Sequence record: MH445380.1
DNA: 64,000 nt
DNA from: Escherichia phage P1
Reading direction: 5' to 3' (one strand)
Shown here one piece after another: positions 22,201 to 28,200 of this stretch. The position numbers are program-made. How positions within the stretch are numbered: the first letter of the stretch is position 1; each line of letters starts with the position of its first letter.

Positions 22201-25200
22201 TTCATGCGACAAGCATTGGCCTGGCTGGAAGGGCATTCATGCAGCGACGACAGACTGGGTAAAGCCGACAATCAACCAGTACGCGGCAACCAGGCTGCCG
22301 AATCCAATCGCGGTAATGAGTGGACCGGCAATCCTGATATTGATAACGCAATCATCATGCTCGACCGCATAGATACGGCGGAAAGTTACGATGATGACCG
22401 TATTGAGGCTGTTAAGGCTGTTTTGCGTAGACTGGCAGGCAACTCTCCGGTAACTCCGGATGGTTGGATAAGCTGTAGTGAGCGAATGCCCCCTCAAGAT
22501 GATTGGATTTTAATTTATTCAAAGCACGGCGAGTATATGGCAGGACAGGTACAAGGGGAATACGTGGAGTTGAGCGACGGCACTTTATCGTGGTTAGGGA
22601 ACGCCTTGTTCTGGATGCCGCTACCAGAACCGCCGCAGGAGGCGAAATGATGGATGTAAAAGAGAAGGTTTTGCAGGTGATGCGTTCCCGGGCTGCCCTG
22701 CAAGATAAAGCTCTCGGCGGGGAATATCCATTCAGGATGGCAACCTGGAATCTGCGGTTGGCAATGGAGAAGGAATTTCCTGATGAAGAATGGCGTTCGG
22801 CAGATTTGCGCAAAATTCTTATGGAGCTGGCTAAAGACGGAACAGTATCCAAAGATACCCATGCCAGCCGGATTGGTCAGGCGGTATGGAGACTGGAGGT
22901 GAGGTAATGGCTAACCTGCAACTTGCCGTTAAAGGTGAATACTTCGATGCCATGATTCGCGGGGAGAAAACGGAAGAGTATCGCCTGTGTAATGACTACT
23001 GGAATAAGCGCCTCGTTAACCGTAAGTATTACCGCCTGATTATCACAAAGGGATATCCGAAGCGCGAAGACTTCAGTCGCAGAATTGACGTCCCGTATAA
23101 CGGATATGAAATAAAAACAATCACACATCCACACTTCGGTGATAAACCGGTAAAGGTGTTCGCGATAAAAGTGAAGATTAATAGCTAAATTTCAATTAAC
23201 ACGGAGTAATTATGTGGCGCGGTAATAATCATGGCGGAAGTCAGATGATACTTACCGAATATACGTTCGACCACAAAACCAATAAATCACGTTCAGTATA
23301 TTTGCTTCGGCACAATAGCCGCGTAAGAAATACCGTTCTGGAGCAAAATCTGACCGTTGAAATGGATAATTTGGGAAACTTCAAGCCAACAATATCGCTT
23401 GATGATTTTCCGTGTGGTTTAAGCGAAAGAGAAGCAATGCTGAAATTAGCAGAATGGCTACAAAGATTAAGCATTGCTATTGAAGATAACTGGTCTGAAC
23501 CTTAAATTAATATGATGACACTAAAACATTTTCTTGACCGCCCATTATGGGCGGCAGCCGCAGGCTATGACTTTAATTATATGGATTGCATGTCTTATAC
23601 TGCCAATGCATACGACCATTCGTTCAGCCTGCTGTTTAATTCTTTAAGAATATTGCCGGAAACAGAAGTTGGAGAGCTTCATTTATGGATATTGGGCTTT
23701 ATCGCGGCTGGAGTTGGTATTGCCGTATGGCCTTTTATTTTCTGGCTGGTGGCTGTTGTAGTGTGGTTTAAGTGCAAGACGTACCGGAAAAAGTATTTCT
23801 TAGGTGATGGAATGACTGATATTGCCAAAATGAACATTGAAAAATGGACTAAGGAATGTGAAAAGAAATGGCGCAAAAAGAAATGACTACTCTAACGACA
23901 GCATACTTACAGCAATTGGTATTTTTTGCAGGCGAGGCTACTTGTCATCCTGACGCAAACTATTTATTGGAATTTGAGAGGTTAGCGTCACCCGGTATCG
24001 TTCTGGAACTGGCCCAACAGGTGCTGGCCTTGAGACAAAAAGAGCAACATGAAAGTAATACGTGTAGATTGAATTTTGAGCAGTGGCTGGAACAGCAACG
24101 CGGGAAAATCGATGTGGACTGTGGTTGTGTGTCCACTGAAACATTCATGCACTGGCTGCGGGTAGCTTACGAGGCTGGCAACTATCCGGATATTCCGGAT
24201 AGTTCGGTGCCAGCGCCAGGAAAGGGCGTCACCGGTGAACGTATCCGCATTAAGCCGCATGTTTATCGCGAACTGGTTAACCGTCTCCACGATACAGCGA
24301 TCAAGTGTGCTGGCACTCAGCAATTACGAGAAAGAATTAGCCGTGTTTTGGGCGACGTTATTACGCCATATCATCATAAACAAGCCGAGAAAAGCGGTCT
24401 GGAAAGGTGTCATCTTGAGGCAGCATTAAACATTAAGCCGGGGCATACGCTAGGCATTATTGATGCACTGTTGGTTCATAAGATGGCCAGGGCTTTATTG
24501 TCGTTGGTGGACGCTGGTGATACAAGCGAGGGTGAAGTATGAGAGTTGCAGATCACATCAAACACCTTGAAAGAATTATCGAAAACGGTGAACTCTTAAG
24601 AGATCAGATGAGACGCACGGCAGAAGCCAGGGAGGCGATAATCCGCAGTCAGGCTGGTAAATTAAAGCAATTGTCAGAGATTAACACGCTATACAAGAAC
24701 AGACGTAACCGGGCGGTGATGCGGCTTCAGAAAGCACGTAATGAAATTAAATTGGTGGAGGCAAAACTGAAAAAACAGATCCAGCGTTACGATCAGCAAG
24801 ATGCTTTTTATGCCGCCATCAAGGCGGCTGCTAATGAAATAGGCATCTGGAAGTTGCTGGTGGAGAAAGCAAAGACGAAGTTAAATGCCAACGAAAGCTG
24901 AACTACAGGTGCCCACCAGCACATACAGAAAATGATTGTTTCCACATCAAGGAGATTTTAATGTTTCACTGAAACATTAAGTAAGCCAGTGCATAATTCC
25001 ATTTTTTACTGACCTTAAAAGCAAAATCAAAACGATGATGAGGATAATAGCCAGAATCTGGCTAATAATAGGCGCATCTAAAAATGCACTCAGGAACTGA
25101 AAAAAAGCGTTCATTCAGGTGGTTCCTTGTCAAATGTAAAGGTGCACTTGCTCACGTTGACGTAGAAACCCAACCCCTATATAGTTGGATTCGGTGAATG

Positions 25201-28200
25201 AAAGTCGTTAACGTGAGCTTACGGCACATGTTTTCGGAAAAACATCAGGGAACGGCTAATTCCTTGATGCGGGTGGGGTCTGTAATGCAGACCCTATCTA
25301 TTAACGTCATGATTGCATCTCAAATTTTCTCCTTATCTTCAATTAATCTACATTCATTTCATCTGTTAGCCACCACAATATGTAGAAAATGGCCCTCTTG
25401 CAAGTGCATAACTTTGTGGATAACTCAGGAAGGAAAAAGTGGCTTTCGCGCACCTTCGGTCAGACAAGGTGTCCGGGAAAGTCAACGCAAAGAAAAAAAT
25501 TGTTAAAAATAACGTTTGTTGGAATTGTATATTTTTATCCCCTTCAATGGTTAGCATTCTATTAACATCTTTTTTTAGAGACAGAAAAACATATCGTAAC
25601 AACATATATACAGTGTTAAGCGGCGAGTATTATCCTGCGGTGGGAATTCTGGGCGCTGTTAGATTCGACTTTCTCAGCAGGATTACATCGTCAACTTGCG
25701 ACGTTGCCGTATGACTTTCGTGTAATAGGTGACAATGATGCGGCTAGTGAGTTACTTGTGAAGTTTTTCGGAAAAGGTTTTGTGGCCTCGGATCTTGATG
25801 AGCTACAGCAACATGAAGTGTCTAATTTGATTTTTAGCCATAGCCAATAAGCCTCCCTCCTCCATCAAGGCCACAATTTGTGACCTTAAACAATTTGTTT
25901 TCTGCTTTTTCTTATTTGAGAAAATAACGTTGTTGACAGCTAATAGGCTCGTTGTTGTTATACATGCCTGTATAGATTATGACCGTAAATTATTAGCGGA
26001 TTTTAAGCCATATTCACCGTTGTAGAAATTACTCATGTTCCATTCATTAGGAAGTTCTTTTCTGTCCAATGTATAGTGGCGCACGATATAACGATCTTCA
26101 TCTTCTTCGATGGACAGGCGGACATAGCCAATGTGAATCACCGATACGGGCGGTGTTCGTATTGCATAGATGTCGCGGAGATATACCGGCAGCTCGACAA
26201 ATGCATCAGGTGCATCTGTGATGCTCGTTTTTTCACAGTATTCATATAACGCATCGTTGATATCGTTAAGAGATTCATGATCGTATATTTCCAGGTAATT
26301 ACCGCGATCGCGATGGTACTCGATTTTAGCCATTCAAAATCCCCTGTTATCGTTTTGCATTTCTCTAATCCGGTTCAGAACTACTTCATGCTGGACTTGG
26401 ATAGCGGCTTTTTCGTTTTCAAGCCGGGCAATAGACATCTCTAATTCTTTGCTGTACCAGGCGAGCTGGGCCAGGTTCATCCGGTTGTGGTCGAGAGTTG
26501 GAGACACTTCGACGCGATCCCTTTCTTCCTGCTTTAATGAGAAGAGATTTATCTCATCCCTTGAGGAAAATTCAGCAACAATTTCTTGTTGATGATCCGG
26601 TCGCTGCGGCATCCTCGCCAGTATAAATGGCGGTTCTTTTGAAAACATGAATGTCGGTTCAGACCGTGTTTTTACCCAGCTTGCCTGCTGTCTTTCGGCA
26701 AGTTCACAGGCTTCATCATAGTTATCTGCCAAACAAAGCACGGATGGACGGTCCCACGCCCCACCATTCAGACAATAAACTACAATTTTCCCGTCAGGTT
26801 GTGTAACCCCATATGGATGGTCCCACCAGGCGTCCAGCTGAGCTTTAGAGCGTTTCTCGTTAGGAGTGCAGTCAAAATTTTTGGGCAATACAGGATCGAG
26901 AGGAATGCGGGCAGGCATAGCTAATTCCTTATTAACTGATTGGCAACGAGGTTACGCTGATCCGTTGGTGATGAATAGTAGCAAAGAGCACAAAATCATC
27001 AGCGGTGGTTGATGTACGTAACGCGTTTGCACCAAAGGTGTCTCTTTAATGTATACTGTATAAATGAACAGTATTATTGAGGTGAAAACGCTATGGGCTT
27101 CCCTTCTCCTGCGGCGGATTATGTTGAAAGCCGAATTTCTCTTGATCAGCAACTAATCAGGCATCCATCAGCAACCTACTTCATGCGGGCAGCTGATAGC
27201 CATCACCGTGAGGGAATATTGCAGGGTGCTTTGCTGGTGGTTGATTCCTCGCTTACTCCGGTTGATGGTTCTCTGCTTGTGTGCGCTATGGAGGGTGAAT
27301 ATCGCATAAAGAGATACAGGAAGTATCCGCGCCAGCACCTGGAGGATTTAAGCACCGGGAAGAAAGAGGCGTTACCAGTAGATGACGATGGATACACGGG
27401 CAGTAATGCTGTTTTTGGTGTGATCACTCATGTCATCAATGATGCCAGAAGTGGGGAGTTTGATGATTGTCCGGTTATTTAAGCTGCAAAGGGCTGGTGC
27501 TTTATGCCTGTGAAGTTTATAATTGTGTACACATAACGAGTACACGAGGTGTTTATGCAATCCATTAACTTCCGTACCGCGCGTGGCAACCTTTCTGAAG
27601 TGCTCAACAATGTTGAAGCCGGGGAAGAGGTTGAAATCACCCGCAGAGGCCGTGAGCCAGCAGTAATTGTCAGCAAGGCTACTTTCGAAGCCTACAAAAA
27701 AGCGGCGCTGGATGCTGAATTTGCATCCCTGTTTGACACCCTGGACTCCACCAACAAGGAACTGGTTAACCGATAATGAGGCATATATCACCGGAAGAAC
27801 TTATTGCGCTTCATGATGCGAATATAAGCCGCTACGGCGGCCTGCCGGGAATGTCTGATCCGGGTAGGGCAGAGGCCATTATCGGGAGAGTTCAGGCCAG
27901 AGTTGCCTACGAAGAGATCACCGACCTTTTCGAAGTCTCTGCCACCTACCTGGTGGCTACAGCGAGAGGGCATATATTCAATGATGCCAATAAGCGTACC
28001 GCGCTAAACAGTGCGCTGCTATTTCTACGCCGTAACGGGGTGCAGGTATTTGATTCACCTGAACTGGCAGACCTTACCGTAGGCGCTGCGACTGGCGAGA
28101 TATCTGTATCTTCTGTCGCCGACACGTTACGTAGATTGTATGGTTCTGCGGAGTAGATTAATGGCACGCAAATACAACAAGTTGTCCCGTGAAGCGTTAA

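Follow-up and report, generated by a model that had tools for sequence, protein, structure and literature searches.

A candidate type I toxin-antitoxin-like cassette with an nrdA-derived promoter in an ORF-poor interval of P1-like phage-plasmids

The window analyzed here, a 64,000-nt stretch of the Escherichia phage P1 record MH445380.1, represents a P1-like phage-plasmid of the P7/SJ46 kind, and its P1 genes include humD (27093-27482) and phd/doc (27549-28156). Between a pmgV homologue (24539-24901, plus strand) and upf93.6 (25977-26333, minus strand) lies a gap, 24902-25976, which is composed of two unrelated halves. The left half (24905-25423) is a compact cassette with a minus-strand gene candidate for a hydrophobic peptide of 45 amino acids (aa), a conserved leader that contains an opposing promoter and a candidate antisense RNA, and a predicted promoter that resembles the host nrdA promoter. 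The right half (25385-25976) is recombination debris. The left half may constitute an orphan type I toxin-antitoxin-like module.

The gap has a G+C content of 39.4%, compared with 50.9% in the window and 47-48% in the flanks. Its longest open reading frames (ORFs) of 102, 91 and 79 aa are not conserved, and a stop-free run as long as its longest one occurs in 9% of shuffled sequences. The first-pass annotation of this DNA, which had reported an AT-rich and ORF-poor kilobase at this place, is confirmed with small corrections: the composition is real, and the absence of a long ORF is roughly right, the stop-free run being within the range of shuffles. The region 24700-26200 matches P1-like records without a difference (100% identity) and phages P7 and SJ46 at 99.7%; in P1 itself the match stops at ~25453, with 96% identity. 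Between pmgV and hot, the P1 record places three very small ORFs on the plus strand (upfM, upfN and upfO), for which no function is given, and a number of predicted promoters. Both the plus-strand promoter discussed below and the nrdA-like segment are already predicted in that record. The same DNA is annotated as upf91.3-91.7 in the P7 record, where it also contains an IS903, and a minus-strand 'nrdA-like promoter' and a DnaA box are marked in the old P1 record M95666. The upf ORFs of P1 and P7 are all encoded on the plus strand and are not conserved (upfM and upfN are truncated or frameshifted in a diverged allele), whereas the conserved ORF lies on the opposite strand and is absent from both records. 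In identical plasmids RefSeq shows no annotated gene within the gap, and a literature search found no paper describing a gene or an RNA at this interval.

The cassette region 24977-25384 was found by BLAST in 229 plasmid records, all of them from Escherichia, Salmonella or Shigella. Three allele classes are distinguished: the window/P7 type, the P1 type (~95% identical) and a diverged type (~83%). Among complete E. coli genomes the cassette is present in 216 of 5426 (~4%), always at 89-100% of its length, and no partial copies were found, the cassette being full length in 218 of 218 E. coli records and in 229 of 229 plasmids. Its limits are at ~24911 and ~25475. The neighboring genes vary: pmgV and upf93.6 in the window, hsdM and hot at one other locus, and other genes at another. 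The cassette moves as a unit, since copies of the diverged type in a P1-like and an SSU5-like plasmid have different neighbors. Searches for wider homologues of the peptide in a word-indexed database of 5.8 billion proteins and by phmmer in 1.84 billion representatives returned only its own alleles and variants; pattern searches of IMG/VR, GTDB genomes and metagenomes, and a tblastn search of plasmids, added to these three alleles only a few variants with a frameshift or a truncation. Two matches of a conserved 19-mer from the leader in GTDB genomes, both in unrelated metagenome-assembled genomes, were rejected as chance matches.

The peptide ORF starts with ATG, is preceded by a Shine-Dalgarno (SD) sequence and has a hydrophobic product, as the first-pass annotation had described it. 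The product has a grand average of hydropathy of 1.56 and a 19-residue hydropathy of 3.1, and of the 294 ATG ORFs with 30-70 aa that the window contains, this one alone reaches a value of at least 3.0. An ORF of such hydropathy arose in none of 500 shuffles of the gap. In its size (below 60 aa), hydrophobicity and transmembrane helix the peptide resembles the toxins of type I systems. The frame is intact in 60 of the 60 fetched loci that carry the ORF and across the three alleles, down to 76% nucleotide identity; a loss of frame in P1-like relatives, named beforehand as a refuting outcome, is not seen. The ORF alignment contains 33 substitutions, the start and stop codons are kept, and there are no internal stops; indels are present in both flanks of the ORF and absent from the ORF itself. 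The helix is preserved in the diverged allele, as is the AGGA core of the SD sequence, which stands there in a spacer of only 61% identity, and a hairpin that sequesters the SD sequence appears in predicted folds of the peptide mRNA. The ratio of nonsynonymous to synonymous substitution rates (dN/dS) is ~0.41, the synonymous sites differ at ~40%, and the substitutions are conservative. Taken together, an intact frame and a BLOSUM score and helix hydropathy like those observed have a chance probability of 0.009. We consider it quite probable that the 45-aa peptide is encoded by a genuine gene.

The P1-type allele of the peptide is deposited as a 'hypothetical protein' (WP_000123562.1) in some RefSeq plasmids, for example NZ_CP023381.1 (701-838), and the window-type allele is left unannotated. 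The diverged allele is likewise deposited as a 'hypothetical protein', so that the NCBI annotation is inconsistent between alleles. Natural variants keep the helix and have a changed C-terminus; several have frameshifted or truncated tails, and sequencing errors in a run of A may play a part. In GCA_902846855.1 (2501-2707), a recombination junction after approximately codon 31 produces a 68-aa chimera.

The most conserved element of the cassette is the leader, ahead of the ORF. The leader block is 91% identical to the diverged allele, compared with 76% for the peptide ORF and 61-66% for the adjacent spacers. The sigma-70 promoter that opposes the peptide gene is the best site of a promoter scan in the region, with 10 of 12 positions matched; it was predicted independently in the P1 record, and both of its hexamers are identical in 60 of the 60 fetched loci. 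The candidate antisense RNA downstream of it is completely complementary to the leader, over a stretch that lies 75-190 nt before the start codon of the peptide. Both strands of the block fold better than shuffled sequences. For 25189-25305, the predicted fold has -43.5 kcal/mol (z = -5.2) on the plus strand and -27.9 kcal/mol (z = -3.2) on the opposite strand, the plus-strand fold being stronger because of conserved G-U pairs. The stem of the first hairpin is unchanged across alleles, with differences at three of its seven loop bases, and the stem of the second hairpin is kept with one compensatory change from U-A to C-G. The full minus-strand mRNA also has a stable predicted fold (z = -5.1), in which the SD sequence pairs with codons 7-8. 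A conserved opposing promoter combined with conserved predicted hairpins is consistent with the regulatory RNA that was one of the options in the first-pass annotation, and we lean towards the existence of the antisense RNA.

The leader also contains short ORFs on the minus strand. At 25305-25337, AAGGAG is followed after 9 nt by the mini-ORF ATG CAA TCA TGA, the stop of which overlaps the ATG of a 21-codon ORF. The stop of the latter overlaps a further ATG (TGATG), and the nucleotide sequence there is almost invariant. The mini-ORF is reduced to ATG-TAA in the diverged allele.

The leader is preceded by a promoter of mixed descent. The nrdA-like segment is identical to E. coli K-12 at 123 of 130 bases (95%), its part 25385-25440 is 100% identical to many E. 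coli chromosomes, and its orientation is the same as at nrdA. By this match, the -35 element and the DnaA boxes were copied from the host nrdA gene. The -10 element is supplied by the phage and reads TATTGT, TATTGT and TACTGT in the three alleles, within variable surrounding sequence. What the predicted promoter shares with the E. coli nrdAB promoter, at 95-100% identity and in the same orientation, comprises the -35, the two high-affinity DnaA boxes and ~110 nt of sequence further upstream. In contrast to the nrdAB promoter, the homology stops in the spacer, the host part downstream of the -35 is absent, and the -10, the leader and the product are phage-specific. The predicted promoter faces the downstream gene and has an nrdA-type -35 with adjacent DnaA boxes; this arrangement of boxes is the same as in the host nrdAB promoter, which is repressed by DnaA-ATP and activated by low DnaA-ATP or by DnaA-ADP (PMC8203912). 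From the placement of the -35 and -10 elements, the mRNA should start near 25368 and have a leader of ~250 nt. Motif searches found no C1 operator, LexA box or late-promoter motif in the cassette. Control by the C1 repressor, LexA or a late activator was rejected, and expression is therefore expected in the lysogenic plasmid state.

Table 1. Features of the gap and of its border with upf93.6, in window coordinates
Feature	Position	Strand	Description
45-aa peptide gene	24977-25114	-	ATG ORF; product MNAFFQFLSAFLDAPIISQILAIILIIVLILLLRSVKNGIMHWLT, in which a single transmembrane helix stands between a short N-terminal segment and a basic C-terminal tail
Shine-Dalgarno sequence AAGGAA	25123-25128	-	8 nt before the ATG; predicted pairing with codons 7-8 (GUUCCU) in a local hairpin
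Conserved leader/antisense block	25151-25340		Part of the ~250-nt 5' untranslated region of the peptide mRNA; contains the opposing promoter and RNA
Sigma-70 promoter	25157-25185	+	TTGACG-17 nt-TATAGT; opposes the peptide gene; 'PupfN' in the P1 record
Candidate antisense RNA	25192-25305	+	~110 nt; 3' hairpins 25243-25269 and 25271-25299, then UAUCUAUU; ends predicted
nrdA-type promoter	25375-25403	-	-35 TTGCAA (25398-25403), 17-nt spacer, -10 TATTGT (25375-25380); predicted start ~25368
DnaA boxes	25403-25423	-	Perfect TTATCCACA (25415-25423) and imperfect TTATGCACT (25403-25411), just upstream of the -35
E. coli chromosomal segment upstream of nrdA (ypaB region)	25385-25513		Homology ends inside the promoter spacer
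Palindrome	24958-24980		Perfect 11+1+11, TTAATGTTTCA-C-TGAAACATTAA; overlaps the peptide stop codon; AU-rich; no U-tract on either strand
Decayed humD-like 5' region	25514-25649	+	Half LexA box ATATACAGT (25605-25613); 13-nt deletion in the start-codon region
Toprim-domain gene remnant	25650-25850	+	Only the last 66 of 174 codons and the stop
Terminator of the lost toprim gene	25867-25915	+	Hairpin AAGGCCAC-aatt-TGTGaCCTT with one stem mutation, then a T-rich tail
Second truncated LexA-box remnant	25966-25980	+	CTGTATAGAT; adjoins the 3' end of upf93.6

We propose a mechanism that combines these elements. The nrdA-derived promoter would drive a leftward mRNA with a structured leader of ~250 nt, a partly sequestered ribosome-binding site and the reading frame for the 45-aa single-helix membrane peptide. 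The opposing sigma-70 promoter within the leader would produce the two-hairpin RNA of ~110 nt, fully complementary to the leader, and pairing of the two RNAs far upstream of the start codon could block ribosome loading or trigger cleavage, by analogy with the action of Rdl, IstR-1, OrzO and AgrB on Ldr, TisB, ZorO and DinQ, respectively. Synthesis of the peptide would then require a drop in the antisense RNA or a strong induction of the promoter. The cassette would be active in the plasmid (lysogenic) state and responsive to DnaA and the replication status, and the peptide would presumably damage or modulate the inner membrane.

The closest parallel in geometry is with several known type I systems. 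Like Ldr/Rdl, the cassette would have a small one-helix peptide in which the motif 'AP(I/V)' precedes the helix and the C-terminal tail is basic, an antisense RNA opposite the 5' untranslated region that leaves the start codon uncovered, and a long structured leader with small upstream ORFs. Unlike Ldr/Rdl, it encodes a peptide of 45 aa (35 aa in Ldr) without detectable homology to Ldr (hhalign, 10 columns, 2% probability), sits on a phage-plasmid and uses an nrdA-type promoter. Homology to Ldr or Fst was rejected, since hhalign comparisons with LdrD and Fst are insignificant and only the short 'AP(I/V)' motif aligns. With TisB/IstR-1, ZorO/OrzO and DinQ/AgrB, which act through standby sites, the cassette shares the predicted RNA pairing at a distance of ~75-190 nt ahead of a ribosome-binding site that is masked by structure. 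These systems use short (~20-nt) complementarity from a divergent gene, whereas the overlap in the cassette is complete and lies in cis; LexA controls TisB and DinQ, whereas the cassette has DnaA boxes and no LexA box, and there is no sequence similarity. Hok/Sok of plasmid R1 is likewise borne on a plasmid and has upstream ORFs, a long mRNA with much structure and a cis-antisense RNA, which is a candidate in the cassette. The hok mRNA has a fold-back element, and a 12-nt complementarity between the 5' and 3' parts (24942-24953 with 25261-25272) is reminiscent of it. In contrast to Hok/Sok, the cassette has no Hok domain and no Rfam match to Sok, and its antisense RNA does not lie over a translation start with a demonstrated coupling to the peptide. 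The Hok-like 5'-3' pairing itself was rejected: it has a mismatch in the diverged allele, its duplex energies are no better than those of shuffles, and it is not significantly kept.

The type I toxin-antitoxin or small membrane effector option of the first-pass annotation fits the comparative evidence, including the frame that is intact in 60 loci and three alleles, and the earlier interpretation as a whole is partly supported. It had missed the conservation of the leader, the nrdA-derived promoter, the right-hand remnants and the non-conservation of the palindrome. We estimate the probability that the left half is an orphan type I toxin-antitoxin-like module with the combined mechanism at about 0.5. 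A further step, in which the toxin mRNA would be under a pirated nrdAB promoter and so wired to the DnaA-ATP/ADP status (replication initiation or stress) and not to SOS or prophage repression, is speculative, and we regard it as rather doubtful. In that case a membrane toxin that senses replication would lie near hot, humD and phd/doc, as a second and overlooked addiction or stress module of a textbook phage.

Several observations weigh against a toxin-antitoxin module. The peptide has no significant match in Pfam, NCBIfam, PHROGs or PADLOC (with E up to 1 for Pfam and NCBIfam) and by sequence is not a member of the known type I toxin families Hok/Gef, Ldr, Fst, TisB, Ibs, ShoB, DinQ/Dql and ZorO. 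An Rfam search of both strands of 23500-27500, with E up to 1, returned no match to Sok, Rdl, IstR, Sib, OhsC, OrzO, AgrB or other families. An intact frame alone has a chance of 0.11, the dN/dS is only ~0.41, and a few database variants have altered C-termini. The covariation rests on a single base pair, because only three alleles were found anywhere searched; the antisense hairpin lacks a proper U-tract, the second hairpin being a poor terminator, and the conserved block could be explained by recombination instead of selection. Killing on loss of the P1 plasmid is reportedly attributed to phd/doc alone, and the classical 4.3-kb P1 'addiction' fragment (M95666) includes the cassette.

The sole expression data found, which also count against the module, come from lytic P1vir infection with the strand unknown. 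The signal over the leader interval is low, ~10 times that of the adjacent upfO interval: the log2 values at 10 and 30 min are 4.9 and 8.2 for upfN, 1.5 and 5.3 for the overlapping next ORF upfO, and 8.4 and 10.8 for pmgV (PMC8201110). The upfN interval covers the leader and antisense region, and the part of P1 concerned is 86228-86543 of NC_005856, equivalent to ~25213-25520 in the window; transcription falls sharply just right of the cassette in these lytic data. Knock-down or deletion of upfN and upfO has no effect on lytic growth in CRISPR interference data, which are uninformative on lysogeny, as is the lytic RNA-seq table.

The same evidence was weighed for other explanations. The peptide could be a real but non-toxic small membrane protein involved in lysogenic conversion, exclusion or regulation, with a plus-strand lysogenic promoter and leader that serve rightward genes (hot and humD in P1) and an overlap that amounts to incidental convergent transcription. 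The position of hot, ~360 nt downstream of this promoter in P1 and in the diverged allele, agrees with such an arrangement, as do the poor terminator, the missing toxin family match and the role ascribed to phd/doc in addiction. However, the window allele has no intact plus-strand gene downstream and yet retains the promoter and hairpins unchanged, hot has its own mapped late promoter, and the leader is more conserved than the ORF that it serves; we hold this explanation to be unlikely, if worth keeping in mind. If instead the function lay in the small RNA of the plus strand, or in the structured leader, in trans or as a cis-regulatory element, and the 45-aa ORF were untranslated, the RNA block would be expected to stand out as it does, by its conservation and its strong plus-strand fold, and the chance of an intact frame alone is not small. 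It would leave unexplained the joint preservation of the SD sequence, start, stop, length and helix hydropathy, the hydrophobicity that no other small ORF of the window attains, and the confinement of indels to the flanks of the ORF, and we find it improbable.

We judge equally improbable that nothing in the gap is functional and that it is a decaying intergenic mosaic, with the ORF kept by chance and the conserved block a recent recombination patch. The right half is clearly debris, the alleles are few, and the interval is a known variable hotspot of P1-like plasmids (PMC9603915). Against decay of the left half speak the full length of every copy, the boundaries that are kept in different contexts, the coding statistics and the promoter hexamers that are kept on both strands. 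A replication origin, which the first-pass annotation had listed among the possible contents, or a DnaA-titrating site would agree with the AT-rich composition and with one perfect and one imperfect DnaA box. But the gap contains no iterons, tandem repeats or repeated boxes, nor direct-repeat families beyond chance pairs, and the only perfect DnaA box of the whole window, like its imperfect neighbor, belongs to the verbatim copy of the host promoter. The P1 origins oriR and oriL lie elsewhere. This explanation is very improbable, and the origin option was dropped.

The right-hand ~590 bp are poor in ORFs because they consist of gene remnants, which are shown to be debris of exchanges with SSU5-like phage-plasmids. 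The segment 25385-25633 is 81% identical to the sequence upstream of a humD-like gene (S24 peptidase) in the SSU5-like plasmid pRM9975-1, where the LexA box and the ATG are intact. The toprim remnant matches the toprim protein of p899037_3 at 56 of 66 residues (tblastn, E = 3e-36), with 90% DNA identity, and is the site of the IS903 insertion in P7. The terminator of the lost toprim gene and its tail (25864-25928, 64 nt) are 85-91% conserved in many SSU5-like plasmids of ~110 kb from Enterobacter, Citrobacter, Klebsiella and Salmonella. The second LexA-box remnant aligns with TACTGTATAAATGAACAGTA, the intact box that precedes the humD-like gene of p899037_3.

A second candidate type I toxin-antitoxin system was observed in pRM9975-1 at 1960-2470, beside the same nrdA-like segment and the humD gene with the intact LexA box. 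This DinQ/AgrB-style candidate occupies a position equivalent to that of the cassette. It includes a candidate peptide of 27/31 aa, MVNLLFKIVPPMFAIIKAIIEYVNQRP, at 2004-2099 on the minus strand, which has a clean terminator and no NCBIfam match. A plus-strand RNA at 2340-2421 has a sub-threshold match to AgrB (RF02891; 27.6 bits, E = 0.025), and a 20-nt repeat, AGTCGCCAGATACTTAYGGC, would allow it to pair with the 5' untranslated region of the peptide.

The palindrome reported in the first-pass annotation is real, but its coordinates were one base off (AATGTTTCACTGAAACATT is at 24960-24978) and the full repeat is longer. Arms of 11 were obtained in none of 300 shuffles. The palindrome is not conserved: most P1-type copies have a 1-nt deletion in one arm, and the sequence differs in the diverged allele. 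A role, for example as a 3' stabilizing hairpin, is therefore doubtful, and a role as terminator was rejected on the same ground and for want of a U-tract. On the plus strand at 24949-24972, a strong SD sequence AAGGAG is followed after 6 nt by a three-codon ORF, ATG TTT CAC TGA, within the palindrome. The complement of this AAGGAG, CUCCUU, is an anti-SD-like motif in the 3' untranslated region of the peptide mRNA and is not conserved in the diverged allele.

Elsewhere in the window, two Rfam matches to AAC_AAD_leader / attI above the gathering score, at 52652-52727 (minus strand) and 55718-55790 (plus strand), indicate that the phage-plasmid carries integron-type resistance cargo. The window also has three tRNA genes (2403-2475, 2481-2553 and 4361-4433), as expected for P1-like genomes.

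The finding is real and goes beyond what the palindrome suggested, and the module remains a computational candidate. The apparent emptiness of the interval is explained in half by the debris of exchanges between P1-like and SSU5-like phage-plasmids. If the proposed reading is true, the standard P1 and P7 annotation here (upfM, upfN, upfO) is on the wrong strand. P1 serves as a model phage, the plasmid-prophages of which it is the prototype spread resistance genes, and the cassette is found in ~4% of complete E. coli genomes. On this reading P1 would gain a second, RNA-controlled module for maintenance or stress next to phd/doc, in which a mobile element would borrow a DnaA-controlled promoter of its host for the timing of a membrane peptide.

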